Assembly (NCBI GenBank): GCA_964524995.1
Contig: CAZGDV010000003.1
Coordinates: forward strand, 1,029 to 65,028
DNA: 64,000 bases
Direction: 5' to 3'
From: an uncultured Dehalococcoidia bacterium
GTDB lineage: Bacteria > Chloroflexota > Dehalococcoidia > SZUA-161
The translations under genes were made by a program, and so were the position numbers. The notes beneath the pieces are model-generated. The model saw only the letters and a list, made by a program, of their open reading frames with translations. It was not told the origin of the DNA and searched no databases. Below are positions 3,161 through 36,370 of the stretch, piece by piece (within the stretch, counting starts at the first letter, position 1; each line of letters begins with the position of its first letter).

Positions 3161-3857
3161 TCTACAGGCGCTGCAGGACGTGTCGCTGACCATCGAAGAC
3201 GGTGAACGGCGAGCGATTATCGGGCCGAACGGTGCCGGGAAGACAACGCTGTTCAATCTGTTCATGGGGGATATGCTGCCTTCAGCCGGTCGGCTGCACT
3301 TGTTCGGGAGGGATATCACCAATGTCCCATCGCACAAACGTGTTCACCTCGGCATGGCCCGTACCTACCAGATCCTGAATCTCATTCACAATGTGTCGGT
3401 CCTTGACAACGTACGGTTGGCTATTCAGGCGACAATGCCCTACCGCTTCGGCGTATTCCTCTCCCAGGACTCGTATCGTGGACTGTTCGCCGAAGCAAGG
3501 GGCCTGCTGGATGCCTGGGGCTTGTGGGACAAGCGCAACGATCGAGTCGAGGACCTGTCCTACGGCGAACAGCGGCACGTGGAACTGATCATGGCCCTCG
3601 CGTCGAAGCCCAAGCTCCTGCTGCTGGACGAGCCCACCAGCGGTCTCTCCGAGGCTGAAGGTGCCGAATTCGTCAAACGAATACGCGAACTCGGGCGGGA
3701 GACCACGCTGGTGGTCATCGAGCACGATATGGACGTAGTGTTCGGGCTGGCTGATATGATCACAGTCCTTCATCAAGGGCAGGTGATAGCGGAGGGCTCG
3801 GAACAGGAGATCAAGGGAGACATCAAGGTGAGAGAGGTATTCCTGGGTGAGCACTAA
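3117..3857 (+). CDS. ABC transporter ATP-binding protein (LivG-like)
   Basis: Walker A GPNGAGKTT, signature LSYGEQRHVEL, Walker B LLLLDEP. Confidence 0.9.
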   Translation: MEYLRVEGVSKRFGSLQALQDVSLTIEDGERRAIIGPNGAGKTTLFNLFMGDMLPSAGRLHLFGRDITNVPSHKRVHLGMARTYQILNLIHNVSVLDNVRLAIQATMPYRFGVFLSQDSYRGLFAEARGLLDAWGLWDKRNDRVEDLSYGEQRHVELIMALASKPKLLLLDEPTSGLSEAEGAEFVKRIRELGRETTLVVIEHDMDVVFGLADMITVLHQGQVIAEGSEQEIKGDIKVREVFLGEH

Positions 3858-4569
3858 CGGCCCCATCCTCCAGTTAACGGACGTCCATACTTACTACGGA
3901 GACAGCTATGTCCTTCAGGGGGTCTCACTGGAGGTCGAGGAGGGTTCTGTGGTAGCGCTCATGGGGCGCAACGGCACAGGCAAGACAACCGTCATCAACT
4001 CCGTCATCGGCTTCGTGCACGCCAGTCAGGGCACTATCCGATTCCGGGGAATGGATATCACCCGGACCGCTCCGGATCGAATTGCCCGAATGGGCATTGG
4101 GCTCGTCCCGCAGGGCCGGAGGATATTCCCGTCCCTGAGCGTCAAGGAGAACCTGGTCATAGCCGCGCGCAAGGGCTCTCGGCGCAAGGTACGTTGGGAC
4201 CTGGATGCGGTGCTCTCGGTGTTCCCTGCCTTGAAGGAGCGCCTCAATTCAAGGGGACATACCCTCAGCGGGGGCGAGTTGCAGATGTTGGCGATAGCCA
4301 GAGCCCTGATGACCAATCCGACACTGTTGCTTCTCGACGAGGCTTCCGACGGTCTGTCGCCTGTCGCTATGCTCGAGGTGATGCGGGTTGTAGGACACCT
4401 CAGACAAGAGGAAGGCCTGTCGGTGCTGCTCGTCGCTCAGAATCCGAAGTTGGCGCTCGACCTGTCCGACTACGTGTACGTCATGAGCAAGGGCAAGGTG
4501 GCTCACGCGTCGAAACCTGGTGACCTGGTGGGCAACCCTGACGTCATGGCCAAGTATCTGGGGCTGTGA
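3847..4569 (+). CDS. ABC transporter ATP-binding protein (LivF-like)
   Basis: Walker A GRNGTGKTT, signature LSGGELQML, Walker B LLLLDEA. Overlaps the preceding ATPase gene. Confidence 0.9.
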   Translation: MSTNGPILQLTDVHTYYGDSYVLQGVSLEVEEGSVVALMGRNGTGKTTVINSVIGFVHASQGTIRFRGMDITRTAPDRIARMGIGLVPQGRRIFPSLSVKENLVIAARKGSRRKVRWDLDAVLSVFPALKERLNSRGHTLSGGELQMLAIARALMTNPTLLLLDEASDGLSPVAMLEVMRVVGHLRQEEGLSVLLVAQNPKLALDLSDYVYVMSKGKVAHASKPGDLVGNPDVMAKYLGL

Positions 4570-16780: not shown

Positions 16781-16969
16781 GTGCCGGTGGGGGTATCGGG
16801 GGATCGGCGACGGGAAGGGCGATGCCGCCACCGATAGGCTGGGGGGGTACGGTAGGAGTCGGTGGCTCCTCGGTTGGGTGAGTTGGAGTACACGTAATGC
16901 CCCAGGGCGTTCGACCGTGGCGGTTGTGTCAGGGCCGAGCGGCATATCCTTTGGGAGGTTTGAGCTGAG

Positions 16970-17170
16970 ATGAAGCGAGTGCTGTGGTTACTGCTTTCGG
17001 TTCTGGTGGTGTCCGTCTTCGGGGCAGTAGGTTGCAGCGAAGTCACCCCGGACTCCACAGTCTCCGTGGTGAACCAGTGCCTGCAGTGCCATACAGACGA
17101 AGCCACTCTGCAGGAGCTGGCCGTCGAGGAGGAAGATCCAGAGGCCGAGGCCTCCTCAGGCGAGGGCTGA
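16970..17170 (+). CDS. signal-peptide/lipobox-bearing monohaem segment (likely N-terminal part of the downstream cytochrome; ends at an in-frame TGA)
   Basis: Lipoprotein-type signal (VFGAVGCSE), one CLQCH site, an acidic linker. GGGAGG RBS 11 nt upstream. The stop at 17168-17170 is in the same frame as ORF 17180..18277. Confidence 0.6.
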   Translation: MKRVLWLLLSVLVVSVFGAVGCSEVTPDSTVSVVNQCLQCHTDEATLQELAVEEEDPEAEASSGEG

Positions 17171-17179
17171 GGGGGAGCA

Positions 17180-18277
17180 GTGTCTCAGTTGGAGGCATGG
17201 GAGAAGGTCCTCGTCGACAACGAGGACGGCCAATTTGGGAATAGCACTCACGGCATTGTCGGCTGCATGATCTGTCATGAGGGAGACAGCTCCTCTCCCG
17301 ATATGGCCACAGCCCACACCGGTCTGCTGGCAGATCCTTCGTCGGCAGATGCCTGCAGTACTTGTCACGCTGAGATTGAGGCCCACGACGAGTCGAGCCT
17401 GCACAGCACTCTCAGCGGCTTCGAGACAGTCATCGAGTCGAGGGGTGGTGACTTGAGCGAGGGCTCGCTGCTTGTAGAGGCAATGGGCAATCACTGCGAG
17501 TCGTGCCACACGACCTGCGGCCAATGCCATGTAAGCAGGCCGGATTCAGCGGACGGCGGGTTCTTGGACGGTCACGAGTTCGAGGGAACTCCGTCCATGA
17601 CGAATAACTGTACCGCATGCCACGGTTCACGTGTCGGAGACGAGTACCTGGGCCAGAACTCAGGGGTGAAGGCAGATGTGCACAGAAGGAAGGGTATGCA
17701 GTGCTACACTTGCCACAGTGTTGAGTTGCACGGCTCAGGCGAACTCGAGGCGGACAGATACCACAATAGTGAGTCCATCAGCTGTGAGGATTGCCATTCC
17801 GACGTGATCGGGACCAACGCGACGAATACTTACCATCAGATCCACTACAACATACTGTCTTGCCAGGTCTGCCATTCTGTGGAGTACAAGAATTGCTACA
17901 ACTGTCATGTGGAGCAGAGTGAGGAAGGGACCTGCTACTACGTTACCGATCCGTCCGTGATGGGATTCGAGGTCGGGCTGAACCCCATACAGTCTGTCGA
18001 CAGGCCCTATGAATACGTTGTACTGCGCCATGTTCCGGTCAGCCCGGCGACTTTCGCCAGCTATGGCGATAATTTGCTGCCCGATTTCGACGCAACTCCA
18101 ACCTGGAAGTACGCTACACCACACAACATCCAGCTGAACACTCCGCAGAACGACGGCTGCAACTACTGCCATGGACAGGAGCAGATATTCCTCATGCCGG
18201 ATGACGTAGCGGCCGATGAACTGGAGGCCAACGAGGACGTGATTGTCCGGCAAGTCCCAGGGGTCCCGTCCGAATAG
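17180..18277 (+). CDS. decahaem c-type cytochrome (no signal peptide of its own)
   Basis: Ten CXXCH sites (CMICH, CSTCH, CESCH, CGQCH, CTACH, CYTCH, CEDCH, CQVCH, CYNCH, CNYCH). There is no N-terminal export signal unless it is joined to 16970..17170. Confidence 0.8.
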   Translation: MSQLEAWEKVLVDNEDGQFGNSTHGIVGCMICHEGDSSSPDMATAHTGLLADPSSADACSTCHAEIEAHDESSLHSTLSGFETVIESRGGDLSEGSLLVEAMGNHCESCHTTCGQCHVSRPDSADGGFLDGHEFEGTPSMTNNCTACHGSRVGDEYLGQNSGVKADVHRRKGMQCYTCHSVELHGSGELEADRYHNSESISCEDCHSDVIGTNATNTYHQIHYNILSCQVCHSVEYKNCYNCHVEQSEEGTCYYVTDPSVMGFEVGLNPIQSVDRPYEYVVLRHVPVSPATFASYGDNLLPDFDATPTWKYATPHNIQLNTPQNDGCNYCHGQEQIFLMPDDVAADELEANEDVIVRQVPGVPSE

Positions 18278-18317: not shown

Positions 18318-19193
18318 ATGGAGATCAGCCGAAGGAGCTTTCTCAAGGCCTCAGGAGGTCTGGCCGGCCTGGCCGTGTGCCAGCCACTGGTAACGAAGAC
18401 CGCTCAAGCAGCCACCGACGCTGACAGTGCATCACACAAGGCCATGCTGATTGACGTGACCAAGTGCGTGGGATGCTGGTACTGCTACGCAGCGTGCAAG
18501 AAGCAGAATGGCTATCCAGAGGTGAACAGGCCGACTCCCGATGATCCTCCCGACCTGGCCCACAATGTGTGGACCACTTTGCACATCAGCGAAAAGGACG
18601 GAGTGCAGCGATTCAGGAAGCAGGCCTGTATGCACTGCACGGATGCCGCGTGCGTACGCGTCTGCCCTACCGGAGCTCTCAGCTACAATGAACTGGGCTT
18701 CGTGCAGTACGACAAGGAGAAATGCTCCGGGTGCGGCTATTGCACGCAGTACTGCCCGTTCGAGATACCGCGACTGGACGAAGAAGCGATATCCAACGAC
18801 CGGATAGACAAGTGCACCTTCTGCTTCAGTCGCGTAACGGCCGGCGGACAGACAGCCTGTTCCGCTGCATGCCCGACCGGCGCGATCAAGTTCGGCAACC
18901 GGGGTGAGCTTCTCGAAGAAGGCAAGGCGAGAGTTACAGAGTTGCAGAAAGACAACGCCAAAGCGAGCCTGTACGGCGACAGTGATGTGTTGGGTGGCCT
19001 GCACGTCATGTATGTTCTCGACGATGCTGCGGAGTCCTACGGCCTCCCGGCTGACCCAACCCTTCCCGCACCAGCTGTCGTCCACGAGGTGATACAGTGG
19101 GTTGGGATCGGAGCGTTCTTCGCTATGGTTGGGGGATTCAGCCTCAACTACCTGGTAGCTAGGGCCAGGATTGCCAGAGAGGAGAAGAAGTGA
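18318..19193 (+). CDS. TAT-exported 4x[4Fe-4S] ferredoxin-type subunit with C-terminal membrane anchor (FdnH/HybA/OhcB-like)
   Basis: Twin-arginine signal (SRRSFLKASGGLAGLAV) from the ATG at 18318 after AAGGAG. Four Cys clusters (CVGCWYCYAAC, CMHCTDAACVRVCP, CSGCGYCTQYCP, CTFC...CSAACP). C-terminal TM helix. Confidence 0.85.
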   Translation: MEISRRSFLKASGGLAGLAVCQPLVTKTAQAATDADSASHKAMLIDVTKCVGCWYCYAACKKQNGYPEVNRPTPDDPPDLAHNVWTTLHISEKDGVQRFRKQACMHCTDAACVRVCPTGALSYNELGFVQYDKEKCSGCGYCTQYCPFEIPRLDEEAISNDRIDKCTFCFSRVTAGGQTACSAACPTGAIKFGNRGELLEEGKARVTELQKDNAKASLYGDSDVLGGLHVMYVLDDAAESYGLPADPTLPAPAVVHEVIQWVGIGAFFAMVGGFSLNYLVARARIAREEKK

Positions 19194-19843
19194 TGGAGCC
19201 GCGTATCGTTGAGCGGTTTAAGAAGCGCACCGTCGTATTCCACTGGGTGCATACACTGGCCTTCCTGATGCTGATCATCACAGGTCTCATATTGTTCGTG
19301 CCGTGGTTTGGCGAGGGAGCCGCTGGTGGCGCGACCAGGATCATCCATCGCGTCTTCGCGGTCGTCTTCGTTGTTGCGCCGCTCTTCTACCTGCCACTCA
19401 ACCTGAAGCAGAGTATACATTTCTTCAAGGAGTCGTTCCTGCTAGGCAAGGGGGATCTGGGTTGGATGATGGCAGCACCGGACTATTACTTCGGCGGTCC
19501 CGAGGAAAAGATGCCTCCGCAAGGCCATTCCAATACCGGCCAGAAGATGTGGGGCCAGGTCTGTATCGGCACCTTCATCGTCTTCCTCATCACCGGCATC
19601 ATACTATGGTTCTTCCGTGGTGACGTCTCGCCGGGCGTATTCCAGTGGGCTATGGTGTTCCATTCCATTGCGTTCTTCGTAGCGTTCCTTATGCTCTTCG
19701 TCCACGTGTATCTCGGCGTCATTCACCCGCGAATGACCGAGTCGCTCAAATCCATGCTCGACGGCAAGGTCTCTGTGCACTACGCGAAGAGTCACTATGG
19801 CAAGTGGTACAGTGAGGTTGCCGAGGAGGGCGAGGAGCACTAG
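19190..19843 (+). CDS. membrane dihaem cytochrome b subunit (FdnI / Ni-hydrogenase cytochrome b type)
   Basis: 217-aa protein with four TM helices and conserved His in TM helices (HWVHTLAF, IHRVFAV, FHSIAF, HVYLGVIHP). 4-nt overlap with the FeS gene. Confidence 0.8.
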   Translation: MMEPRIVERFKKRTVVFHWVHTLAFLMLIITGLILFVPWFGEGAAGGATRIIHRVFAVVFVVAPLFYLPLNLKQSIHFFKESFLLGKGDLGWMMAAPDYYFGGPEEKMPPQGHSNTGQKMWGQVCIGTFIVFLITGIILWFFRGDVSPGVFQWAMVFHSIAFFVAFLMLFVHVYLGVIHPRMTESLKSMLDGKVSVHYAKSHYGKWYSEVAEEGEEH

Positions 19844-19920: not shown

Positions 19921-22110
19921 CTAGGGTCCGTAGGGGCCAAAGTCCTGCCATGGCCTGTAAAACTCGAGATACGTTGCCCAGCTGCTGCCGGTTGCATCGT
20001 AGCTGGGGTCGCTCTGGGTCGCGACTCCGTGACAAAGGGAACCGCTGCACATGGCGTCTGAAGAGCTGGTCTCAGTGCTGTTTCGCAGCACGGCACCCGT
20101 GCTGTTCGTCTTGGTTGCCCCGATCGACGTAACCATCGGGTATCCCCCTGCGCCTGTGTCCTCGATGACGTAGGAGAACCCGTAGCCGGTCCTTCCCGCA
20201 AGGCTGCCATCCCTGATCATAGCATCGTTGGGCCAACCAGCCTGGTATCCGGCGGCTCCGTGGACGTTGTGACAGGAGGAGCAGGCCGTCATGGAATCGG
20301 TGGAACCCGGGGCCGCGCCGTTTGTGGTATCATCCCAGTCCGAGTCCCAAGTCTGCATGGTGTAGTTCATGATATGGGAAACGTGCTCGTTGATGTCGGC
20401 GCCACTTCCCCAGGCGTAGGAGTAGTTCCGTGGTGGATTGGGGGCAGTCGCCTTGAAGTTCGTGGTTAACGACGCCGGAGTATCATCCAGAACGCTGTTG
20501 GGATCATGACAGGAGTCGAAGCACAGCCTGAACCCGTTGTCCTTCATCGTCTGCGCGTTGTAGCTGAACGTGATGCTGTAGTTGGATGGGATCATAAGGG
20601 GCACTTCGCCGCCGACGTAAGCCAGCCGGTACCCGGCGGCGTAGGCCACACCTGACTCGCTCGGCGAGTAGTATGACGTCTGGAACTCGTATGTCCTCGG
20701 GATGCCATCGATGTGCGTCCCCGTCTCCGTATCGTGGCAGTCCTCGCACTCCACGGATGCGGATCTGCCGTGGCCGGCCGTCCAGAACAGGCTGACGTCC
20801 GGGGCCGATACGCCCGCGATGACCGCAGGGTCATCGTCGTGACAGCCGACGCACCACTGCTCCTTGCCCGCCTGCAAGGGGCTGCCGTACACACCGCTGG
20901 ACCAGTTCGCCTTGGCCCCGATCGTCGGATCGTTCACCCCGTCGTAGGAGCCACCCGGGCTGTGACATGTGTCACAAGCTGCGGTGGTCGCAAGAGGCAG
21001 GCCATCGCTGAACAGCGAGTAGTTATCATCGTCATGGCAATCGGTGCAGTCTAATGGCGTGGATGGGCCCTTGCTGTTCGCAGTCGTGTGAGTGGCGTGG
21101 CTCCCAGATGTGCCGTGGCATGCAGCACAATCGCCGCCTCCCGCCCCCCCGTGGCCTACCCCCTCACCCGTGGGCTGATGGCATTGCGTACACACTTTCC
21201 GATTCTTGGCCGAAAGCAGGCGGCTGTCATAGGCACCACCCGCAGCCGCCATCGGATCGGGCAGACTCACCGAGCCGCTGTACGCCCCCATCGTCGCACT
21301 CGTGCCGTGCGCTACATGGCAGCGCAGACACCCACCGGAGATCTGCGTGTTGTGTCGGTAGCTGAATACCGCGTCACCCGAATGAATATGCCCTTGCCCG
21401 GCCCCAGCTCCATACCTCGTGTGACACTGCGAACACCACTCGTCCAGGTTGTACGGGGTGTAGGTCACATCACGGTAGTACTGTGTCGTGCCGTTACCGG
21501 TGTTGTAGGTTATCTCATATGTCGGCGTGCCCGTCTCGTCCGATACGTCCACGGCCGTGGTATTGCCCTCATCCGCCATACCGTCGGGATTTCCCCTGAG
21601 TATTCGGTAGTTGCCGTTGCCATGCGGATTGTGACAGTCACCGCAGGCCAGGTCCACTGCTATGCCGTAGTCAGGGGTTGCGTTCACCGGACCGCTGCCC
21701 CAAATCGTGCCCGACGTGATCCCGTCGGCGGTGTGGGCCGAGGTGACCAGCCTGCTCGTGATGTTGCCATTGACATCGACATCCATAACGGCGTAATCGA
21801 AGCCGCCGCCCCGGAGCCCGGAGCCCGACGTCCCGTATGTGCTGCCGTCGAGCTCTCCGTTGACGACGTCGGTCTCGGCACCTGTGCCGTCGTGACAGCT
21901 GAAGCAAAACTGGTCCTGAGTGGGGCCTACGGTGAGGAGTTTGGGGGCCTGGCCGGTGTGAGCCCTGTGACAGCCCGCGCATGAGTCCGCCCCCGTCTGG
22001 AAGTTGTCCTTGTCATGCAGGTCGTTGTCAGCAAGCGCTGGAGTCGCTGCTATCAGCATCGCCAGGACGATGACAGCGACCAGGGCATATCTAAGCAAGG
22101 GGATCAACAT
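19921..22110 (-). CDS. multihaem c-type cytochrome, paralog A (hexahaem N-module plus haem-rich C-extension)
   Basis: Signal peptide ending ALA|DNDLHDKDNF. 12 CXXCH plus CFDSCH (CX3CH) and CSGSLCH (CX4CH). The first two sites form a paired-CXXCH arrangement. Confidence 0.9.
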   Translation of the reverse strand: MLIPLLRYALVAVIVLAMLIAATPALADNDLHDKDNFQTGADSCAGCHRAHTGQAPKLLTVGPTQDQFCFSCHDGTGAETDVVNGELDGSTYGTSGSGLRGGGFDYAVMDVDVNGNITSRLVTSAHTADGITSGTIWGSGPVNATPDYGIAVDLACGDCHNPHGNGNYRILRGNPDGMADEGNTTAVDVSDETGTPTYEITYNTGNGTTQYYRDVTYTPYNLDEWCSQCHTRYGAGAGQGHIHSGDAVFSYRHNTQISGGCLRCHVAHGTSATMGAYSGSVSLPDPMAAAGGAYDSRLLSAKNRKVCTQCHQPTGEGVGHGGAGGGDCAACHGTSGSHATHTTANSKGPSTPLDCTDCHDDDNYSLFSDGLPLATTAACDTCHSPGGSYDGVNDPTIGAKANWSSGVYGSPLQAGKEQWCVGCHDDDPAVIAGVSAPDVSLFWTAGHGRSASVECEDCHDTETGTHIDGIPRTYEFQTSYYSPSESGVAYAAGYRLAYVGGEVPLMIPSNYSITFSYNAQTMKDNGFRLCFDSCHDPNSVLDDTPASLTTNFKATAPNPPRNYSYAWGSGADINEHVSHIMNYTMQTWDSDWDDTTNGAAPGSTDSMTACSSCHNVHGAAGYQAGWPNDAMIRDGSLAGRTGYGFSYVIEDTGAGGYPMVTSIGATKTNSTGAVLRNSTETSSSDAMCSGSLCHGVATQSDPSYDATGSSWATYLEFYRPWQDFGPYGP

Positions 22111-22233: not shown

Positions 22234-24924
22234 CTATTCTGCGAGTTCGAGCTTCACGGCGTCGGCACAGATTCGGCCATCGGTCTCATCGCTGAGGGTC
22301 ACGTACCCCGATGTGCCAGCCGAGAAAGGGTAGGTGCCAAGGAGGTTCCACTGTCCCCCGTTCACCTGCTGGTTCACGTCTATCGTAGTCTCACCACCGT
22401 CGTAGTGAATCGTGTAAGGAGCGTCGGTAGCCCTTCCTGTAGCCTGATGCCACCATGCATAGACATCATAGGCCCCCGATTGCGGCAGGTCAGGTGTCCA
22501 GGTGGCTGTGGCGCTGACGGTCGTATTGCCATCATGGCGATAGAAGTCACCATTGAAGGCGTTATCATTCTCGATATAGCTCCAGCCCGTGCCGGTGAAC
22601 AGGGCATCGCGGTCGTCGACGATTGCTCGCGGCACATAGGGCCGGTAGTACTCGAAGGACGCCTGTCTGGGGTTGAACTCCTGGTCCAACTCCTCGAGAT
22701 AGCTATGGCAGTTGAAGCACATCCCACCCACATTGTTGCCGCCGGGGCCGTACTGCCAGCCCATGCGGAAGATCGCACCGTCGCTGGTCTCCCTGGTGGT
22801 GTCGAGAGAGGTCATTGTAGGGGGCGAGGTCTGGCCGTCCCAGATTACGTACGAGAAGGCGAAGCCGAGCCTGAAGTCGTCCTCGCGATCGTAGGTAAGG
22901 CTCCCGTCCCGGATCATCGGCTGGTTCGACGAGCCCAGCGTTCCGGCGACCCCGTGGACGTTGTGACAGGTGGAACAAGTGAACAGTGAGTCGTATCCTT
23001 GACCGAACGTATCTGTGCTGCTATCCCAGTCCGAGTCCCATGTGCGTGCACTTCCAGGGTGATGCGACATCTCGACCAGGTGATAGTAGTGCTCATTGGT
23101 CTGCGCCGGGTCGCCCTCCCCCCAACCATAGGACCACTTGAATGGCGGATTGGGCGGCCGCTCGCGCTTGAAGTACGTGTCGTAGTTGTCCTCCAGCATG
23201 AAAGTTGTGTAATGACAGCCCGAGTCGAAGCACAACCCGGCCCCGTACTTCTTGTATACCATGTCGTCGGCTATCTCCGTATCCGAGGAGCCCACGAACG
23301 TGGTGCCCCAGCTCATCGGTATCATGAGGGGAACACTGCCGTAGACTGATCTCAGCCTGTACCCTGCCTGATAGTCGACGCCGGTGCTCGAAGGCGTGTG
23401 CTGTGATATCTCCGTGAATGCGTACGTTCTGTCGTCTCCATCGATGTGCGTGCCGGTGGTCGTATCATGGCAGTCCTCACAGGCGAGTACGCCGGACCGG
23501 CCGTGGCCGCTCATCCAGAACAGGCTTACGTCGGGCGCGCTCACACCCGCGATCACCGCAGGCTCATCGTCGTGACAGCCCACGCACCACTGCTCCTTGC
23601 CCGTAGCCAACTGGCCGTCGTAGGCCCCGACATCCCATACGGACTTCGCTCCCAGGTAAGGATCATCCACACCATCGTAGGTGCCGCCTGGACTGTGACA
23701 CGCATCACAGACAGCCGTGCTGTCCAGGCTCTCCCCGTCCGCAAACAGAGGATACTGATCCGTGTCGTGGCAATCCGCACAATCCAGGGGAGTCGCAGGG
23801 CCCCTGGTGTTGACTGTTGTATGGGTCGCGTGACTGCCCGAGGTGCCGTGGCATTCCGAGCAGTCGGCACCTGAGCTGTGGCCCACTACCTTGCCGTCCA
23901 CGACATGGCACTCGGCACAGACCTTGCGACTGTTGACCGACAGCAACCGGCTGTCGGTCGTGCCCCCACCCGGCGTGCCGTCCGGAAGAGGCACCGTCCC
24001 ACTGTGGGGCCCCATCGTCGCCGTTGTGCCATGCGCAACGTGGCATCGGAGGCAGCCACCGGTCAGGCTGCTGGTGTTGTGGCGGAACGTGTACACTGCG
24101 TCGCCGGACGGCGTCTGAATCTGGCCGGTGCCTGCATGATATCTCGAATGGCACTGGGAGCACCAATCGTCTAGGTTGTATGGCACGTACGATACATCGC
24201 GATAATACAGGCTGCTACCGTTGCCCGTGTTGTACGATATCTCATAGGTCGGGGTATCTAGTTCGTCCGGCACGTCTACGGCTGTCGAGTTACCCTCGTC
24301 CAGCATACCGTCCGGGTTGCCACGGAGCACCCTGTAGTTACCGTTGCCGTGCGGGTTGTGGCAGTCGCCGCATTCCAGCGTCAGCATGTTCCCGTAGTAC
24401 GGTGTGCTGCTCGTCACGCCGCCGCCCCAGGCAGTCGAAATGGAGTTGTCGACGTTGTGGGAGGAGGTTACATTGCCGACGGAAGGGGTGCCAGATAGCC
24501 CAGAGTCCATAACGGCGTACTGGAAACCGCCCCCGCGCAGACCGGCACCGAGCGCGCCGTAGGTCATCCCATCCAACTCGCCGTTCATGACGTCGGTCTC
24601 GGCACCGCTGCCGTCATGGCACGTGTAGCAGAAGTTCGCCTGGCTGGGTCCCGAGAGGAGGAGACTGGCGGCCTGACCGGTGTGCGCCCTGTGGCACTTC
24701 GCGCAAGCGTCAGCCTCACCCACGAAGTTGTCCTTATCGTGCACGTCGTTATCAGCCAAGGCCGGAACGGCAGACACGACGAGAACGAGAAACGTGCAGA
24801 GGAAGACAAGTACTCTGGCCAACGGATACCACCATGAACAGTGTCTAATCCTATAGGGTAAACGCGAGGCGGTCACTTGGCAAACGCGACACTTCACTGA
24901 ACCTACCGTTATTGAAGACGCCAA
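22234..24924 (-). CDS. multihaem c-type cytochrome, paralog B, with C-terminal golvesin-like binding domain
   Basis: Collinear with paralog A. 13 CXXCH plus CFDSGCH. The C-terminal ~130 aa carry the YDVYAWW...APYTIHYDGG...VNQQVNGGQWNLLGTY...ADAVKL pattern. The true start is probably the in-frame TTG at 24822, just before the signal peptide. Confidence 0.85.
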   Translation of the reverse strand: MASSITVGSVKCRVCQVTASRLPYRIRHCSWWYPLARVLVFLCTFLVLVVSAVPALADNDVHDKDNFVGEADACAKCHRAHTGQAASLLLSGPSQANFCYTCHDGSGAETDVMNGELDGMTYGALGAGLRGGGFQYAVMDSGLSGTPSVGNVTSSHNVDNSISTAWGGGVTSSTPYYGNMLTLECGDCHNPHGNGNYRVLRGNPDGMLDEGNSTAVDVPDELDTPTYEISYNTGNGSSLYYRDVSYVPYNLDDWCSQCHSRYHAGTGQIQTPSGDAVYTFRHNTSSLTGGCLRCHVAHGTTATMGPHSGTVPLPDGTPGGGTTDSRLLSVNSRKVCAECHVVDGKVVGHSSGADCSECHGTSGSHATHTTVNTRGPATPLDCADCHDTDQYPLFADGESLDSTAVCDACHSPGGTYDGVDDPYLGAKSVWDVGAYDGQLATGKEQWCVGCHDDEPAVIAGVSAPDVSLFWMSGHGRSGVLACEDCHDTTTGTHIDGDDRTYAFTEISQHTPSSTGVDYQAGYRLRSVYGSVPLMIPMSWGTTFVGSSDTEIADDMVYKKYGAGLCFDSGCHYTTFMLEDNYDTYFKRERPPNPPFKWSYGWGEGDPAQTNEHYYHLVEMSHHPGSARTWDSDWDSSTDTFGQGYDSLFTCSTCHNVHGVAGTLGSSNQPMIRDGSLTYDREDDFRLGFAFSYVIWDGQTSPPTMTSLDTTRETSDGAIFRMGWQYGPGGNNVGGMCFNCHSYLEELDQEFNPRQASFEYYRPYVPRAIVDDRDALFTGTGWSYIENDNAFNGDFYRHDGNTTVSATATWTPDLPQSGAYDVYAWWHQATGRATDAPYTIHYDGGETTIDVNQQVNGGQWNLLGTYPFSAGTSGYVTLSDETDGRICADAVKLELAE

Positions 24925-24991: not shown

Positions 24992-26266
24992 CTAGGACAA
25001 CGCCCTGTCGATGGCTTGGATCGTAGCGTCGATGTCAGCCTCGGTATGCGCCAGTGAGATGAACGCGGCCTCGAACTGGGATGGCGGCCAGTATATGCCC
25101 TGGTCCAGCAAACTCCTGTGGAACGCTGCGAACCGTTCCGTGTCAGCCGACTTGGCCGACTCGTAATCGGTAGGTGCGTCCTCACGGAAGAACACCGTCA
25201 GGAGCGATCCGATCCGCGAGGTTGTGGCGATCACACCGGACTTGGAGATGGCAGCGAGGATGCCCTGCTCGAGCTGCTTGCCCCTGTCGTCGAGGGTCTT
25301 GTACACACCGCGGTCGCTGAGCAACCTCAGCGTCTCGATACCGGCCGTCATAGCCAGCGGGTTGCCGGACAGGGTGCCGGCTTGGTAGACAGGGCCAAGC
25401 GGGGCCATCAGAGCCATTATGTCCTCGCGCCCGCCATATGCGCCCACAGGCAGGCCACCGCCGATGATCTTACCCAGGCAGGTCAGGTCCGGCATGACGC
25501 CGAGGAGCTCCTGCGAGCCGCCACGGGCGACCCGGAACCCGGTTATGACCTCGTCAAAGACCAGCAGAGCACCCGCAGCGCTGGCGATGTCGCGCAGGCC
25601 CTCCAGGAACCCTTCCTTGGGAGGCACGACCCCCATGTTTGCCACGATAGGCTCGACGATGATGGCGGCTATGTCCGTGTGCTCATCGAACAAGGCGCGA
25701 ACAGAGGAGAGGTCGTTGTAGGTCGCGATCAGTGTGTTCTGCGCATATCCAGCCGGGACACCAGGGCTGTCCGGCGTCCCCAGCGTCGTCGCCCCTGAGC
25801 CAGCTTTCGCCAGAAGGCCGTCGGAGTGCCCGTGATAGCATCCCGCGAACTTCACGATCTTGTCCCTCTTGGTGTAGGCGCGCGCCAGCCGCAGGGCGCT
25901 CATCGTCGCCTCCGTGCCGGAGTTGACGAAACGCACCATTTCGATGGACGGAACAGCCTCGCACACCATCCGGGCAAGAACCGTCTCCAGCTCCGTGGGA
26001 GCGCCGTAGCTCGTGCCCTTCTCGGCGGCCGCCTTGACGGCGTCGACCACCTGCGGGTGGGCATGTCCGAGTATCAGCGGCCCCCAGGAGCATACGTAGT
26101 CGATGTACTCGTCGCCGTCGACACTGCGCAGGGTCGACCCGGAGGCACTCGCAACGAATACCGGGGTCCCGCCGACCGCCTTGAAGGCGCGCACGGGACT
26201 GTCAACACCCCCCGGCAGGTACTTCTGGGCTTCATCGTAGAGTGCTTGAGATCGGTCGGTGTTCAT
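24992..26266 (-). CDS. hemL: glutamate-1-semialdehyde 2,1-aminomutase
   Basis: [10 protein letters not shown] motif, class-III aminotransferase. Start at MNTDRS (26266) gives an ATGA overlap with the upstream gene. Confidence 0.95.
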
Positions 26267-27789
26267 CCCACCTCGCCATTCCTGTAATATCGCTCGATAG
26301 CCTCTACCAGGCCTGGTATCGTGTGTTGGGTCGCGACGACCTGGGGAGTCAACCCCAGTTCCCGGGCCGTCGCAGCGGTTCGCGGGCCTATGCACGCGAT
26401 TGTGGCCATCTTCACCGCGTTCCAGTCATCGGCAGCAATCGCGCGCAGATTGGTTACGGTCGAGGAGCTTGTGAAGGTGATCAGGTCGATTACCCCGTCG
26501 GATAGCAGCTTCCGGGCTGCAGCCACATCTTCATCGGGGAGGACGGTGTGATATGCTGTCACATGCCTCGGCTCGGCCCCCAGCCCAGCCAGACCCTCCA
26601 CGAGATCCATAGGTGCGATGTCCGCCCTGAGCAGCAGGACACGCGAGCCTGCTATACCCGCTTCGGCAAGGCTCTGGAGAATGCCTTCGCTCGTGTACTC
26701 CTCGGGTGTCATGTCAGGATGGAGACCGCGCTCTTCGAGTGCTGCGGCGGTGGCAGGGCCTATCGCGCAAATACGGGTCCCGGCAAACGAGCGGGCGTCT
26801 CGCGAGAGGGTCAGCACTCGCTGCCACACCACCTCCACGCCGTTCGCACTCGTGAATACCACCCAGTCGTAGTCGTGTAGGGTGAGTATGGCACGATCCA
26901 ACTCGGCGGTGTCTGCCAGGTCTTTTACCGCTATGGTGGGCAGTTCCACGGCTTCCGCCCCTCGTTCGACGAGCATTCCGGCGAGGACGCTTGCCTGGGC
27001 TCTCGATCTGGTTACGAGAATGCGCTTCCCGAAGAGAGGCCGTTTCTCGAACCACGCCAGATGCTCGCGAAGGTTGACCACCTCACCAACCACGATCACG
27101 ACCGGCGGCTCGAATCCGGCCTCTTCGGCCCTGGCCGCTATGTCTTGCAGCGTGCCCGTCAGAGTCTGTTGCTGGAGGGTCGTTCCGTGGCGGATCAGGG
27201 CCACGGGAGTCGCCGGAGGGCGGCCGCATTCTACCAGCTTCTCCGCAATCTTGGGCAGATTGCCCATGCCCATCAGGAAGATCAGTGTGTCAACGCCGGT
27301 GGCGAGATTCGCCCAGTTGATGCTGGACTCCGGCTTACCCGGGTCCTCGTGGCCGGTGACAACCGCGAAAGACGATGCAATACCCCTGTGCGTAACGGGA
27401 ATACCAGCGTACGCCGGGACACCGATGGCTGACGATATGCCCGGCACGATCTCGAATGGAATGCTCTCCGCGGCCAGTGCCTCCGCCTCCTCCCCCCCGC
27501 GCCCCAGGACCAGCGGGTCTGCTCCCTTCAGTCTAACGACGGTCTTTCCCTCATGCGCCTTGTCCACCAGAAGCTGATTGATCTCGTGCTGCTCCATGGC
27601 GTGGGCCTTGAACGACTTGCCGGCGTATATGATCTCGGCGGTCGGAGGGGCCTCCCCCAGCAGACGTTCGTCGATCAGGTGATCATAAACAATGACATCG
27701 GCGCGGCGTATGCAGTCGAGCCCCTTCACGGTGATGAGGCCTACATCGCCAGGGCCTGCGCCGATCAGGTAGACCAAGGCCTCGCTCAT
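26263..27789 (-). CDS. cobA-hemD: fused uroporphyrinogen-III C-methyltransferase / uroporphyrinogen-III synthase
   Basis: The N-terminal half is SUMT ([25 protein letters not shown]). The C-terminal ~250 aa are HemD-like. Confidence 0.85.
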
Positions 27790-28712
27790 TGCCGCATCCT
27801 CTCCACCAGAAGGCTCGCGCCCATGTCCAGCATACGGGTCGCCAACTCTTTACCCGTCTCCTCACCATACTGGACTTCCCGATCACAGCCGGCGCGCAGG
27901 ATAGTCTTTCCGTCGGGATCAGCCACCATCCCCTGCAGGTACATCCTGCCCTCACTGACAGTCCCGTTGGCCGCGATCGGAGCGCGACAGCCCCCACCCA
28001 GGGCTCTGAGGAACTCGCGCTCAGCCACCACGCACTGCCAGGTGTGATCGTGGTTCAGCGCCGATAGGAGATCGATGATGTCACTGTCCGACTCCCTTAC
28101 CTCGATGCCAAGCGCCCCCTGTCCGACCGCAGGTGTGAAGGCCTCATGAGGCAGATACTCGGCTATCCTGTCCACCATTCCCAGTCGGATGAGGGCCGCG
28201 GCTGCGAGCACGATGCAGTCGAACTCACCCGAGGCCACCTTGCGAAGCCTGGTATCGATGTTCCCCCTGAGCCCCAGCACTTCGAGATCGCTCCGCTGGG
28301 CGCGCAGCTGTACCGCCCGCCTCTGGCTCCCTGTACCTACCTTGGCACCGGGAGGCAGCTCCGCGAGCCCGCCGCAGCGCGATACCAGCACGTCGCTCGG
28401 GTCGATCCTCTCCGGAACGCATGAGAGGCAGAGACCATCGGTGAGGCTCGTCGGCATGTCCTTCGCGCTATGCACAGCCATGTCAATTCTTTCATCCGTG
28501 AGCGCCTGCTCGAGTTCACGGACAAATACGCCCTCCCCGCCCAGCACATCGAGTGGAATCTGACGGTGACGATCACCCGTTGTAGCGATCTCGACAAGGT
28601 CGAACCCAATGTCCGGGTGAATCGACGGGAGGCTCGCGATGACGCTGTGGCACTGCTGCAGTGCGAGCTTGCTGCGCCGGGTACCGACTCTGATCCGCCC
28701 TTTGGACTTCAC
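27786..28712 (-). CDS. hemC: hydroxymethylbilane synthase (porphobilinogen deaminase)
   Basis: IRVGTRRSKLALQQ N-terminus and LRGNIDTRLRK motif. Confidence 0.95.
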   Translation of the reverse strand: MKSKGRIRVGTRRSKLALQQCHSVIASLPSIHPDIGFDLVEIATTGDRHRQIPLDVLGGEGVFVRELEQALTDERIDMAVHSAKDMPTSLTDGLCLSCVPERIDPSDVLVSRCGGLAELPPGAKVGTGSQRRAVQLRAQRSDLEVLGLRGNIDTRLRKVASGEFDCIVLAAAALIRLGMVDRIAEYLPHEAFTPAVGQGALGIEVRESDSDIIDLLSALNHDHTWQCVVAEREFLRALGGGCRAPIAANGTVSEGRMYLQGMVADPDGKTILRAGCDREVQYGEETGKELATRMLDMGASLLVERMRQ

Positions 28713-30004
28713 TGCAGGTCCTGCTCGTCCAGGGCGAAGAGCTCACACACGGTCTGAACGAATTCGCCGTCTCGATGCCCGTTTTCTCTCAGAGACTTGA
28801 TAGGTTGGTGGAGGAGTCGGCTGACAATCGCCCTGGTCATAGCATCCAGGACCTCACGTTCCTCTTCCGTGTAATTGGGCAGCTTCTTCAGCGAGGCATT
28901 GAGCTGTCGTTCCCTGATCTGATTGGCCATCTGGTTAAGCGCGCTGATCACAGGCTTGGTCTCCAGGTGTTCCCACCATGCAATAAACGTCTCGGTTTCG
29001 TCGTCGACTATCTGCATGGCCCTGTCGATCTCCTTCTCCCTGTCCCTGCGATTCATCTCGGAGACTTCGTCGAGGTTGTCGATGTCATACGCGTAGACAC
29101 CCTGGATGTCTTTGACCTCGGGTTCGACGTCTCGAGGTACTGCGATGTCGACGATGACCAGCGGCCTGCCGCCGCGAGCTGGCATAAGGGACTCCACCGC
29201 CTGGCGCTGCACGACATAGTGAGGAGCACCCGTGCAAGTGATGACTATGTCGGACACCTGCATCTCTGCATACATGTCGTCGATGCCGATGGACCTCCCG
29301 CCCAGGAGTGCTGCCAGCTCGTCGGCACTGACGACGGAGCGACTCGCCACCGTTATCTCACATGCGCCCCTGTCGCACAGGGCCCTGGCCACCAGTTTGC
29401 CAGCTTCGCCAGCCCCGATGAGAAGGGTCTTGCAGGAGCTGACATCGCCGACCACCTTCGCTGCGAGGTCGACGGCCACCGAGCTCACGGAAAGCGCGTT
29501 TCTGCTGAGCCCGGTCTCCTCCCTCACGCGACGACCGGTGCGGACTGCGTATTGGAACAGCCTGCGTAGAGGCAGATTGACCATGCGGGCACGATCGGCA
29601 TCCTCCAACGCCTGCCGCACCTGACCCAGTATCTCGTGTTCTCCGACAATCATTGAATAAAGGCCCGATGCCGCTCTGGCCAGGTGCCTGGCCGCCACGT
29701 AGTTGCGCGAGGAGTATAGATACGGTTCCAGTTCCTCGTCTGTTATCCTCGCCCTGTCTGTCAGGAAGCGCCTCAAAGAGTTCTCAGCGGTCCCCTTACG
29801 GTCATCGAGCGCATACAGTTCAGTCCGGTTGCAGGTAGCCAGTACTACTCCGTGCGGAACGTAGTCCTTCAGCGTTTCGAGAGCCTCCTGCATTTGCGCC
29901 TTCGGGATACTCAGCCTCTCGCGGATGGCAACCGGCGTTGAGCTGTAGTTGACGCCGATAACGCACAGCTGTGGTCCGGCGAGTTGAGCGGTCCTACGCG
30001 TCAT
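28709..30004 (-). CDS. hemA: glutamyl-tRNA reductase
   Basis: LATCNRTELY active-site motif and GAGEAGKLVARAL NADPH fold. Confidence 0.95.
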   Translation of the reverse strand: MTRRTAQLAGPQLCVIGVNYSSTPVAIRERLSIPKAQMQEALETLKDYVPHGVVLATCNRTELYALDDRKGTAENSLRRFLTDRARITDEELEPYLYSSRNYVAARHLARAASGLYSMIVGEHEILGQVRQALEDADRARMVNLPLRRLFQYAVRTGRRVREETGLSRNALSVSSVAVDLAAKVVGDVSSCKTLLIGAGEAGKLVARALCDRGACEITVASRSVVSADELAALLGGRSIGIDDMYAEMQVSDIVITCTGAPHYVVQRQAVESLMPARGGRPLVIVDIAVPRDVEPEVKDIQGVYAYDIDNLDEVSEMNRRDREKEIDRAMQIVDDETETFIAWWEHLETKPVISALNQMANQIRERQLNASLKKLPNYTEEEREVLDAMTRAIVSRLLHQPIKSLRENGHRDGEFVQTVCELFALDEQDLQ

Positions 30005-31641
30005 TGAGAGTTCCTCCCCAATCGGTCCAGTAATTCCTGCTTGGCATGCTCGCGGCGACCCGCACGTAGCAGACCCAGCAGTGTATCCAGGTCGAGAGCC
30101 TCCTGCCAGTCATCGTGAGGCACCTCGGTTGCACTCGCCTTCAGCTCTGATCGCACCTCAGCGACCATATCTACAAGCTCGGCGTATTCAGGCCCGAAGG
30201 CATCCTGCAGGTCCGTCCTGATCTTGCGTGCCAGCGCCGGGCTCTTGCCACTCGTCGATATGGCCAGTGTCAGGGCCCCACGCCGCACATATGATGGGAC
30301 GACGAAGCTGGAGAGCCGGGGAACATCGACCACGTTGACTAGAATACCCCTCTCGTGTGCCTCGTCCGCCACCTGTTCGTTGGCCACGGCATCATCTGTG
30401 GCTGCGATCACGACTACAGCGGATTCGAGATCACCCCGCCGATACGAACGCCGACGGGTTCGAATGGTTCCTTGCCGGGCCATCTCCTTCAGCTCGGCGC
30501 ACAGGTCGGGGCTGATGACATCGACGTCGGCGCCAAACTCCCTAAGCATGTTGACCTTCCGCAAGGCCACTGCACCGCCCCCAATCACCACGCAACGCCT
30601 GTGCCTGATGTCGACGAACGCCGGGTAGTAGGAAAGCACCGAGTCGTTCCCGCCCGGACGCTCGTAGCGAACGCGCTCCTTCTTGAACTCCCTGACCGAG
30701 AACAGCACCCTGTATTCCTTGATGCCGGTGGCAGCCGAGATACGATCGATTGTGTCGAGGCAACCATCCCTGGTCCTGCCGTGGACCATCGTGAACATAT
30801 TGTATGGCCAGTCGGCGTTGGTCCGGCGCTCGTAGCAATGACTTACTTCCTTGAACCCGGACATTGTGAGGCCGGCCTCGTCCACTCTCCCCGCCGGAAC
30901 AACCCAGGCAACCATAGTATTCGCCTTGAGCCCGGCGCTCCGATGTCTGAGCGCAGCGCCGTATCGTCTTATTACGCCATGATCCTTCAGATGCTGGCAC
31001 TGGGCGATGTACTGATCGATGGACATGCCGGCGCGGCGTGCGGCGGCATCGAATGGCCTGGCTGTGACCGGTGCGTCACGCTGCAGCTGTTCGATTACGG
31101 ACCAGTCCAGCGCTGTCAGTTGCCCGTTCTGCCTTTGCACAGGAGGGATCGATGTGGCTGTGTCCCCAGAGCCGGTCAGGTCGAAGGCGGCGCTTATCTT
31201 GAAGAGGCGCAGGGCAGGCAGCTCGAATATGGCTGTGGGGCGAATTGCCGATCTCAGGCTATCAACCTCGCGGCTTCTATCCTGTGCTTTGGGCAGGGAC
31301 AGCGTGAACCACAGGTTGTAGTAATCTCTGCGCTGGTAGTTGTGGCTCACGCCGGGGTGGCGGCTGACTACTTGAGCCGCCTCCTCCAGACGGCGCGGCG
31401 GAATCCTCGCAGCGACGAGCGTCGTCGTATAGCCGAGGGCAGATGGCTCCAGTACAGGGCCAATTGTTCTTATGATGCCTTCGGCCTTCAGACGTCTCGT
31501 TCTTGTGATGACGTCCTTCTCCGTGAGACCGATCTTGCGGGCAATGTCGAGGTATGGTCGCCGGTCCAACGGGAAATCCGACTGCAGCGCATTCAGCAGC
31601 TCTCGATCGACCCTGTCCAATCTCGTGCTATCGCCTGACAT
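30001..31641 (-). CDS. triple fusion: sirohaem decarboxylase AhbA-like + AhbB-like (two Lrp/AsnC-type units) + precorrin-2 dehydrogenase/sirohydrochlorin ferrochelatase (SirC/CysG-N-like)
   Basis: Two tandem NirD/L/G/H-like units (RELLNALQSDFPLDRRPY...; WSVIEQLQRDAPVTARPF...), then VVIGGGAVALRKV Rossmann and TSGKSPALARKIR motifs. Start set at the ATG at 31641, 1 nt after the upstream stop. The longer ORF to 32082 overlaps the upstream gene. Confidence 0.8.
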   Translation of the reverse strand: MSGDSTRLDRVDRELLNALQSDFPLDRRPYLDIARKIGLTEKDVITRTRRLKAEGIIRTIGPVLEPSALGYTTTLVAARIPPRRLEEAAQVVSRHPGVSHNYQRRDYYNLWFTLSLPKAQDRSREVDSLRSAIRPTAIFELPALRLFKISAAFDLTGSGDTATSIPPVQRQNGQLTALDWSVIEQLQRDAPVTARPFDAAARRAGMSIDQYIAQCQHLKDHGVIRRYGAALRHRSAGLKANTMVAWVVPAGRVDEAGLTMSGFKEVSHCYERRTNADWPYNMFTMVHGRTRDGCLDTIDRISAATGIKEYRVLFSVREFKKERVRYERPGGNDSVLSYYPAFVDIRHRRCVVIGGGAVALRKVNMLREFGADVDVISPDLCAELKEMARQGTIRTRRRSYRRGDLESAVVVIAATDDAVANEQVADEAHERGILVNVVDVPRLSSFVVPSYVRRGALTLAISTSGKSPALARKIRTDLQDAFGPEYAELVDMVAEVRSELKASATEVPHDDWQEALDLDTLLGLLRAGRREHAKQELLDRLGRNSQ

Positions 31642-31642
31642 A

Positions 31643-35782: not shown

Positions 35783-36370
35783 TCCTGATAACCTGAGTAT
35801 CCATACCCTCTGCCCTGCGCGGTGCGATGTTGTCTCGAGATGAGACAACGCCCTCAGTCACAGATTGTCGTCTGCCTGGAGTCCCCGAACAATCTTACCT
35901 GCGTACCTTTTCCCTCTTACCTTCGTCACCTCGGGCATGACCAGGTGAGAACACGGCTGTTGCGGGCAACGCTCCGATAAGGGGGCCGTGGGGGGCTCGA
36001 TCGGGCAGTACTTTCAGCCCTTGTGCATACCAGTCAAAGCGGCTAAACTAGAATAGGTACGAATGTACCCCCTGGCAGAGTCGATGACGGCGGGCCTACT
36101 CGTGTCGGCGAGACGGGCGGTGCTAGCCAAGCATTGTGATACTTGCGGAGGGGCGAAGGTACTGGTGACAATACGGTGCGTTCCTCGGCGGCTTGAGCGC
36201 CGAGATAACGCTTGTGATTATCGGGGGTTCAGGGCGGCTCCAGCTCACGACCTAGCTGTCTGCCACATCGAGTACGGCTGCGTGGTACAGAGGCGATTGG
36301 TCAGCACCTTCCCGTCACAGTCAAGGCGGTGGGACTGCGGGCAGCAGCCGAATGCCGGAGGAACGTCGCC

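Follow-up and report, generated by a model that had tools for sequence, protein, structure and literature searches.

A probable selenocysteine codon in a candidate undecahaem cytochrome family of Chloroflexota and Actinomycetota

Does an in-frame UGA end a short lipoprotein gene in an uncultured Dehalococcoidia bacterium, or is it translated, so that two adjacent reading frames make one exported cytochrome? The question is raised by positions 16970-18277 (+) of a 64,000-nucleotide stretch of contig CAZGDV010000003.1 (assembly GCA_964524995.1), hereafter the window, which is the final ~64 kb of a 135-kb contig. Two open reading frames (ORFs) lie there in one frame, with only the TGA at 17168-17170 and three codons between them. 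The first, 16970-17170 (+), begins MKRVLWLLLSVLVVSVFGAVGC... and encodes a lipoprotein-type signal (…VFGAVGC; grand average of hydropathy, GRAVY, +1.66), one CLQCH haem motif and an acidic tail that runs to SSGEG. The second, 17180-18277 (+), encodes ten CXXCH motifs and has a hydrophilic N-terminus (GRAVY -0.73). An original prediction, made from the letters of the window, had described this split and had placed the only export signal on the first ORF; we read both in the same way. The comparisons described below make it very probable that selenocysteine (Sec) is actually inserted at UGA 17168-17170. The fuller reading, an undecahaem cytochrome in which UGA specifies Sec by means of a selenocysteine insertion sequence (SECIS) hairpin and which acts as a quinone-linked oxidoreductase of sulfur or selenium compounds, is one that we consider probable.

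Read through the TGA, the frame ends at a true stop, TAG 18275-18277, and gives a product of 435 amino acids with 11 haem motifs and the UGA at codon 67. The word decahaem in the original prediction thus fits the second ORF, with its ten CXXCH motifs, but the full protein is undecahaem; the mass of ~41 kDa given there is also too low, because the mature protein is computed to be ~51.5 kDa as the holoprotein and 44.7 kDa as the apoprotein. On direct reading of the sequence, a probable Shine-Dalgarno element, GGGAGG at 16953..16958 (+), lies 11 nt ahead of ATG 16970, and no such element stands at a comparable distance before GTG 17180. The hydrophobic signal peptide and lipobox occupy 16970..17035 (+), and the lipobox Cys22 (codon 17033-17035) is kept in 68 of 73 full-length translations. 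Haem motif 1, the CLQCH at 17078..17092 (+) on the 5' side of the recoded codon, is kept in 70 of the 73 homologues. Alignments of the junction segment show that an acidic linker of variable sequence (EEEDPEAEASS-type; 17117..17158, +) then leads into a glycine-rich loop, GEG-U-GG (17159..17176, +), which is invariant in 74 junctions and which would hold the Sec residue. Haem motifs 2-11 and the rest of the cytochrome core span 17264..18172 (+), with CXXCH motifs at 17264, 17354, 17495, 17516, 17609, 17702, 17783, 17861, 17894 and 18158, and all ten are present in each of the 73 read-through translations. All eleven motifs are invariant in a seven-sequence alignment that includes the distant forms with Cys, His, Arg or Trp in place of the UGA. 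Pfam matches within the cytochrome are weak (Cytochrome_C7, c3_2 and an MtrC-domain). Assignment to the multihaem c-type cytochromes comes from the eleven CXXCH motifs, the lipoprotein signal on the fused ORF and a CcmF/NrfE gene at 36757-38739.

When the fused protein was searched against a database, 2,308 homologues were returned. Of the 120 that matched best, 118 are ~340-385 amino acids long and start just past the stop, and two are full length. We fetched 80 species-level genomic loci, which come from Dehalococcoidia (42), Anaerolineae (20), Actinomycetota (10, mostly Acidimicrobiia), Chloroflexia (3), unclassified Chloroflexota (3), Calditrichota (1) and a contig labelled Thorarchaeota (1). 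The junction is covered in 77 of these loci, and the codon at the site is TGA in 75, TGG in one and AGA in one; TAA and TAG do not occur. Chance falls far short of explaining such a recurrence of one in-frame TGA. The loci with UGA span Dehalococcoidia, Anaerolineae, Chloroflexia, Actinomycetota and Calditrichota. The invariant peptide around the codon reads S-x-GEG-[UGA]-[G/A]G-x-[L/V]-P-[P/Q]-[L/V]-E-x-W-E-K-V, and coding conservation flanks the UGA on both sides, with the lipobox Cys and haem 1 upstream and the ten other haem motifs downstream. The frame from 16970 to 18277 thus behaves as a single gene: tblastn matches cross the stop in dozens of species, and sense-codon homologues align from end to end. 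The original prediction that the two halves form one protein is well borne out by these findings.

Two side observations concern the membership of the set. The sole 'archaeal' member, L055 (SHMX01000014.1, labelled Candidatus Thorarchaeota), has a bacterial-type hairpin in the coding region and a rhodanese fusion and closely resembles Chloroflexota sequences; the contig is probably mis-binned. Two Anaerolineae metagenome-assembled genomes (MAGs) carry two UGA-containing paralogues each, L045 and L048 in JASFHU01 and L061 and L062 in JBFFCR01.

The same data bear on two simpler explanations. One is that the UGA is a true stop, in which case the locus would encode a 66-amino acid monohaem lipoprotein and a separately initiated, cytoplasmic polypeptide of 365 amino acids, with the hairpin described below serving translational coupling. 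Gene callers and the public records do give two ORFs. The c-type cytochromes acquire their haem in the periplasm, and the second ORF has no export signal yet carries ten CXXCH motifs that need maturation there. Moreover, the called start codons differ between species, the frame and the peptide motif run across the stop in 75 loci, and the homologues with a sense codon are single proteins. We regard the two-protein arrangement as highly improbable. The other explanation, also named in the original prediction, is a pseudogene or a TGA that arose by base-call or assembly error. One window alone would not distinguish these from recoding, and one contig with a Cys form does have an extra in-frame TAG. 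On the other side, three independent assemblies (the window, Logan assembly SRR14699969 and ENA assembly ERZ27256778) have the same junction sequence, TGA and hairpin included, which speaks against an error, and seven contigs from different assemblies carry the C-terminal protein. Both halves are conserved across at least three phyla, and 75 species-level loci share the TGA, with both of its sides under strong purifying selection, which speaks against a pseudogene. The chance of either is negligible.

If the UGA specifies Sec, Cys would be expected at the same position in some relatives, and the original prediction had proposed to look for Cys or Sec at the EG-X-GG position. We searched 1.84 billion representatives exhaustively by phmmer with a fragment that spans the junction; this gave many N-terminal ORFs of 66-74 amino acids that stop at GEG and a small set of read-through forms. 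Cys is present in three full-length proteins, P0172 (GEG-C-GG), P0169 (SSS-C-GG) and P0185 (GGG-C-GG), and in the fragments P0121 and P0193. His occurs in the full-length P0180 (GEG-H-SD) and possibly in P0179; Trp in the full-length P0007, in P0167 and P0173 and at locus L070; and Arg in the full-length P0005 and in P0182. Ser (P0181) and Pro (P0171, which is chimeric) have no full-length representative. Sequence identity between the window protein and the full-length Cys and His forms is 38-45%, and the alignment brings all 11 haem motifs into register. Thus, TGA prevails among the homologues, and Cys appears in rarer and more distant forms, which is the classical Sec/Cys pattern of Sec sites. 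Even so, over 95% of the closer members of the family keep Sec.

Some of the sense-codon loci have peculiarities of their own. P0121 (L083:1264-1823 and L084:697-1256; Logan SRR26074223 and SRR26074222) has an in-frame TAG 27 codons past the Cys (THG*VGC). This TAG is present in both samples and falls where relatives often have Lys, and the downstream haem motifs are intact and in frame; the gene may have become a pseudogene recently, or another explanation may apply. At L028:4001-9142 (uncultured Dehalococcoidia binchicken_co17_467), the flanking genes for the cytochrome b and for a 729-amino acid multihaem protein are ~84% identical to those of the window, but the orthologous cytochrome is only ~55% identical; it has AGA for TGA, and both the GEG motif and the hairpin are lost. 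This suggests either fast divergence following the loss of Sec or gene replacement. The His form P0180 (locus L088:1104-5906, GCA_024277275.1) is 624 amino acids long with extra C-terminal haem motifs, and it stands beside genes for a small cytochrome, an NrfC-like iron-sulfur (FeS) protein and NrfD, not beside rhodanese or FdnH/I-like genes.

What would direct Sec to this codon? A hairpin lies just downstream of the UGA, at 17181-17197 (+). Its stem, 17181-17186 / 17192-17197, encloses the loop AGUUG at 17187-17191 (UGUCUC-AGUUG-GAGGCA) and is present in both the minimum free energy and the centroid folds; a G17180-U17198 pair can lengthen it. Counted with the U of UGA as position 1, the spacer from the UGA to the stem is 10 nt, the stem has 6-7 bp and the loop occupies positions 20-24. 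The original prediction had placed the hairpin correctly and had called its geometry compatible with a minimal bacterial SECIS, which holds, but the spacer is 10 nt rather than 12-13, and the loop is at positions 20-24 rather than 19-23. The spacing and the apical G-U resemble those of E. coli fdhF and of the bSECISearch model. In the family hairpin, a loop of GUU (or A/C-GUU-G) separates positions 14-20 from their pairing partners, positions 24-30. Every sequence has G21, and of 75 sequences, 66 have U at position 22 and nine have G.

The codons within the stem are fixed to a degree that the codons beside it are not. The stem uses Pro CCU in 73 of 74 cases, Pro CCG in 62 of 62, Leu UUG in 62 of 66 (never CUN) and Glu GAG in 73 of 73, whereas the Glu codons just beyond the stem are split ~50:50 between GAA and GAG. 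Pair 15-29, which couples a third codon position to the Val, Ala or Gly codon before the invariant Trp, is G-C in 35 sequences, A-U in 18, G-U in 10 and C-G in five. In the stem core of one Acidimicrobiia sequence, two changes compensate for each other. When the pairing was scored over 75 sequences, 93.4% of the cells were paired, compared with 42-57% when the partner column was slid; four pairs have changed on both sides, and none of 500 shuffles reached any of the observed covariation measures.

The hairpin also goes with the UGA. At least six of the seven pairs can form in 72 of 74 UGA genes, compared with one of eight sense-codon genes (Fisher p ~7e-8, uncorrected for phylogeny). Of the eight sense-codon homologues examined at the DNA level, only L070 (TGG) retains the hairpin; the other seven, Cys forms P0172, P0185, P0169 and P0121, His form P0180, Arg form P0005 and Trp form P0007, keep two to five of the seven in-register pairs. 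The Cys form P0121 is instructive, as it codes LPPLEAW as CUG CCG CCG CUG GAG GCC and has no hairpin. The same peptide is thus written with other codons, and therefore the frozen codons reflect an RNA constraint tied to the UGA and not a constraint on the protein. A scan against Rfam gave zero matches at gathering thresholds and only chance matches to long noncoding RNAs at E<=10. The fold, the frozen synonymous sites, the covariation and the link to the UGA support the proposal that the hairpin acts as a bacterial SECIS.

Could the UGA be translated without Sec? Reassignment of UGA to Trp or Gly throughout the genome was considered and rejected; TGA terminates 12 of 36 conserved window genes, and so, the code is the standard one and the recoding is local to one site. 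No second recoding site was found in the window. A local version of the idea would have a near-cognate tRNA-Trp, or a leaky stop, decode the UGA with the hairpin merely stimulating the event. This version draws on the Trp found at the site at L070 (TGG), in P0007/P0167 and in P0173, and on the absence of Sec machinery from the DNA surveyed. Against it stand the SECIS geometry of the hairpin with its conserved apical GU, and the substitutions themselves: three full-length homologues have Cys and one (P0007) has Trp, and with the fragments and L070 included Cys is counted five times and Trp three to four times. In addition, the persistence of TGA alone over deep divergence and the invariant flanking glycines are typical of Sec sites, and the lineage has many selenoproteins: Dehalococcoidia MAGs are listed in BSepDB with 46 and 49 selenoprotein genes, which places them among the richest bacteria (PMC13326102). 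Read-through by means other than Sec is therefore very unlikely, and we continue with the reading that the codon specifies Sec67.

What might such a protein do? Two genes follow it on the same strand. The first, 18318..19193 (+), encodes an iron-sulfur subunit of the FdnH/HybA/NrfC type with four clusters, a C-terminal membrane anchor and a signal for twin-arginine translocation (TAT) (Pfam Fer4_11 and TAT_signal; NCBIfam FDH-beta, E=1.3e-53, under the curated cutoff), and it is syntenic in ~50 loci. The second, 19190..19843 (+), encodes a membrane cytochrome b of the FdnI/PhsC type that presumably interacts with quinone (Pfam Ni_hydr_CYTB, E=4e-20; NCBIfam FDH-gamma, E=5.5e-32, with 111.4 bits against a cutoff of 115.85), and it is syntenic in 37 loci. 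The trio of cytochrome, FeS protein and cytochrome b is thus syntenic in 37-50 Dehalococcoidia loci. The two partners resemble those of FdnGHI and PhsABC, though both NCBIfam scores fall under their cutoffs. Those complexes have a molybdopterin catalytic subunit, whereas no molybdopterin protein is encoded in this cluster, and the multihaem selenoprotein stands upstream of the FeS subunit. The three proteins most likely form a quinone-linked complex.

The most consistent neighbour of the family as a whole is an exported tandem-rhodanese lipoprotein, each domain of which has a CYTGH[S/T]G active-site loop. In 63 of the 80 loci, from Dehalococcoidia, Anaerolineae, Chloroflexia and Actinomycetota, the rhodanese gene is directly upstream of the cytochrome gene or fused to its N-terminus; it is directly downstream in the Calditrichota locus, and it also adjoins the Cys form P0185. 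No rhodanese was found beside the His, Trp or Arg forms examined. One fused form (L018:~2000-4115) has four rhodanese domains as the result of an exact tandem duplication of ~300 amino acids, which could be real or an assembly artefact. The downstream 'partner' ORFs at the Acidimicrobiia and Chloroflexia loci were rejected, as they are shadow frames and not genes.

A precedent for such a protein exists, and it is the sole analogue that has been characterised. MccSep/ExtKL (GSU2937-2936) of Geobacter sulfurreducens is a pentahaem periplasmic selenoprotein that reduces polysulfide and selenite (PMC13510729; PDB 9WT8-9WTC; NCBIfam NF040886). Its Sec is a nucleophile beside a His/Cys-ligated haem, and its gene cluster contains a rhodanese-like lipoprotein, ExtH (PMC13510729). 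Both MccSep and the protein described here are exported multihaem c-type cytochromes with an in-frame UGA and a SECIS-like hairpin in the coding region, both are annotated as two ORFs and have links to a rhodanese-like lipoprotein, and sulfur or selenium redox chemistry like that of MccSep is plausible for the new family. They differ in that MccSep has five haems and a Sec near the C-terminus in PDG-U-PTP, whereas the new family has 11 haems and Sec67 of 435 in GEG-U-GG. MccSep also has a haem-ligating partner Cys, whereas the new family has no conserved non-motif Cys except the lipobox Cys22, and MccSep is found in Desulfobacterota and Nitrospirota, the new family in Chloroflexota and Actinomycetota. 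No homology to MccSep was detected at E<=10 by phmmer with the protein or by a search with a profile of 55 family sequences, in a library that contains 9wt8/9wt9.

Taken together, these features would suggest the following sequence of events. Translation would start at ATG 16970, and at UGA 17168-17170 the ribosome would insert Sec under the direction of hairpin 17181-17197, which would serve SelB and Sec-tRNA(Sec). The precursor would be exported by means of its lipoprotein signal and lipidated at Cys22, and it would receive its 11 c-type haems from the Ccm system present in the window. The predicted product is a selenoprotein of ~51 kDa on the outer face of the cytoplasmic membrane, with Sec67 in a flexible GEG-U-GG loop between a one-haem N-terminal segment and a ten-haem core. 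The FdnH-like FeS protein and the FdnI-like cytochrome b would join it in the quinone-linked complex, in which the cytochrome would replace the molybdopterin subunit. Because of the rhodanese linkage and the activity of MccSep, we infer that Sec67 is a chalcogen-reactive residue; it may react with sulfane sulfur or selenium species, usually brought by the rhodanese, and the haem chain would carry electrons to or from the quinone pool. FdnI-type subunits occur in donor-oxidising (Fdn) and acceptor-reducing (Phs) complexes alike. By analogy, then, the chances are about even that the family is an oxidoreductase of sulfur or selenium compounds (polysulfide, persulfide, thiosulfate or selenite), and they are somewhat lower for the window member, which has no rhodanese.

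Several observations weigh against this scheme or parts of it. The genes selA, selB and selD and a tRNA-Sec were not found in the 64-kb window or in the 10 kb upstream of it; this covers ~74 kb of the genome only and carries little weight either way. More specifically, none of selA, selB and selD is among the ~36 window genes, and the window contains no tRNA of any kind. Sec machinery was also absent from ~640 kb of homologous loci, and no tRNA-Sec was found in 60 of them; a tblastn search with E. coli SelD gave no match in the window or in the homologous DNA. The Fisher p of ~7e-8 that links hairpin and UGA carries no phylogenetic correction. The Trp, Arg, Ser and Pro variants indicate that some lineages do without the residue. 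A partner Cys is not conserved in the family, and so, the MccSep mechanism is not directly transferable. No rhodanese lies near the window cytochrome or its nearest relative, L001, nor near that of L028, which makes the sulfur link weakest for the source organism. Finally, the AlphaFold2 model of the Trp variant P0007 is poor (predicted local distance difference test, pLDDT, 54.5, with the N-terminal region below 50; predicted template modelling score, pTM, 0.38), and a Foldseek search of the PDB returned noise only.

Some of these points lead to a different view of the function, in which Sec is inserted and the protein is an electron conduit, for example for extracellular electron transfer, with Sec in a structural, redox-tuning or haem-ligand role. 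The window is an island of multihaem cytochrome and haem-biosynthesis genes, with seven other multihaem cytochrome genes and no rhodanese, and the His form P0180 stands beside an NrfCD-type module, also with no rhodanese. Furthermore, Cys and His, which are possible haem ligands, substitute for Sec in distant homologues. For a pure wire, however, the rhodanese adjacency or fusion in 63 of 80 loci is hard to explain, and a costly Sec that over 95% of the close members retain points to chemistry for which Cys is a poor substitute. The ~11 conserved non-motif His for 11 haems also leave no ligand missing. We consider the conduit rather unlikely and retain the scheme in which Sec67 would react with sulfur or selenium species.

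A related proposal is that Sec67 is the sixth (axial) ligand of a c-type haem, most plausibly haem 1. If true, this would be a natural His/selenolate haem, the selenium counterpart of the His/Cys haems in TsdA, SoxAX and MccSep. The N-terminal segment offers haem 1 no conserved His, the residues that replace Sec in distant full-length homologues are mainly Cys (three) and His (one), both able to ligate haem, and the glycine-rich loop could reach a haem face. However, the Sec clade has ~11 conserved non-motif His for its 11 haems, plus a conserved Met243, and Trp, Arg, Ser and Pro occur at the site, and so, ligation by Sec is not required; we think it doubtful. An argument for ligation from a count of 10 His for 11 haems was discarded as an alignment artefact, as the equivalent of H289 is conserved with a one-residue indel.

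How does the family relate to other systems? A 2026 review of the selenoproteomes of prokaryotes lists three families of the cytochrome type, ExtKL (NF040886), GSU2204 (NF041027) and octahaem tetrathionate reductase (TIGR04315) (PMC13188914). The GSU2204 family and the Sec forms of the octahaem reductase are, like the present family, CXXCH proteins with a recoded UGA. The fused protein matched none of the three models (E<=0.01), and no NCBIfam model scored above its cutoff. Wolinella Sud/Psr offers a parallel in a periplasmic sulfur carrier of the rhodanese type that feeds a respiratory reductase (in part from PMC13510729). TsdA and SoxAX place a chalcogen residue at a haem in thiosulfate or polysulfide chemistry (likewise in part from PMC13510729); the reactive residue proposed here is Sec. 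By analogy only, the Gly-Cys-Sec-Gly arm of thioredoxin reductase, an unrelated protein, also holds Sec in a glycine-flanked flexible segment, and the loop here might move back and forth between a partner and a redox centre in the interior; thioredoxin reductase has an adjacent Cys, whereas the cytochrome has none. Among known structures, PDB 28pb_A (a 278-amino acid 'Cytochrome c') contains the same two-haem module as the family does after its Sec loop (profile E=4e-7). It is a possible partial structural template, and it was set aside as a guide to the Sec loop, since it covers the shared module only. Our literature searches found no description of a GEG-U-GG undecahaem family. We conclude that the family is distinct, widespread and uncatalogued, that its recoding mechanism would be a classical one and that a precedent for a multihaem selenoenzyme exists.

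The way in which these genes are annotated has consequences. Public records give a 66-amino acid hypothetical protein and a second ORF that is either unnamed or called 'thiosulfate/3-mercaptopyruvate sulfurtransferase'. Seven JGI records (P0018, P0054, P0059, P0093, P0103, P0160 and P0161) use the sulfurtransferase name for C-terminal ORFs that contain haem motifs only, a name most likely carried over from rhodanese-fused homologues. The family comprises at least 2,300 database proteins, and 118 of the closest 120 are C-terminal fragments with no signal. With this fragmented annotation, the complete exported enzyme goes unseen when the metabolism of Dehalococcoidia, Anaerolineae and Acidimicrobiia is reconstructed, and these are dominant groups in many anoxic sediments and subsurface habitats. 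The family would be a second class of multihaem selenoenzymes, apparently independent of MccSep, which was first characterised in 2026, and the recurrent pairing of a Sec cytochrome with a rhodanese looks convergent for the handling of sulfane sulfur or selenium outside the cytoplasm. For uncultured Chloroflexota, it is a concrete candidate for the respiration or oxidation of sulfur or selenium. In addition, a hairpin linked to UGA, with Cys forms as natural controls, is a clean comparative case for SECIS elements in phyla where these have been little studied.

The rest of the region, 19921-57711 of the window, forms the haem and cytochrome island mentioned above. Its seven further multihaem cytochrome genes are at 19921-22110 (-), 22234-24924 (-), 34847-35848 (-), 42932-43957 (+), 52022-53410 (-), 53714-56431 (-) and 56515-57711 (-). 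A haem-synthesis cluster at 24992-33896 (-) contains HemA/C/D/L-like genes, a siroheme-decarboxylase-like gene and two radical-SAM genes. Also inside the island are the CcmF/NrfE gene at 36757-38739 and a 481-amino acid ORF with no NCBIfam match (47680-49125, -), the latter adjacent to genes for an NHL-repeat protein (49079-50941) and a TPR protein (50945-51853). The gene at 22234-24924 (-) has an unusual pairing, as it encodes a multihaem cytochrome of 896 amino acids with a C-terminal Golvesin_C domain (Pfam PF25275, E=1.5e-35).

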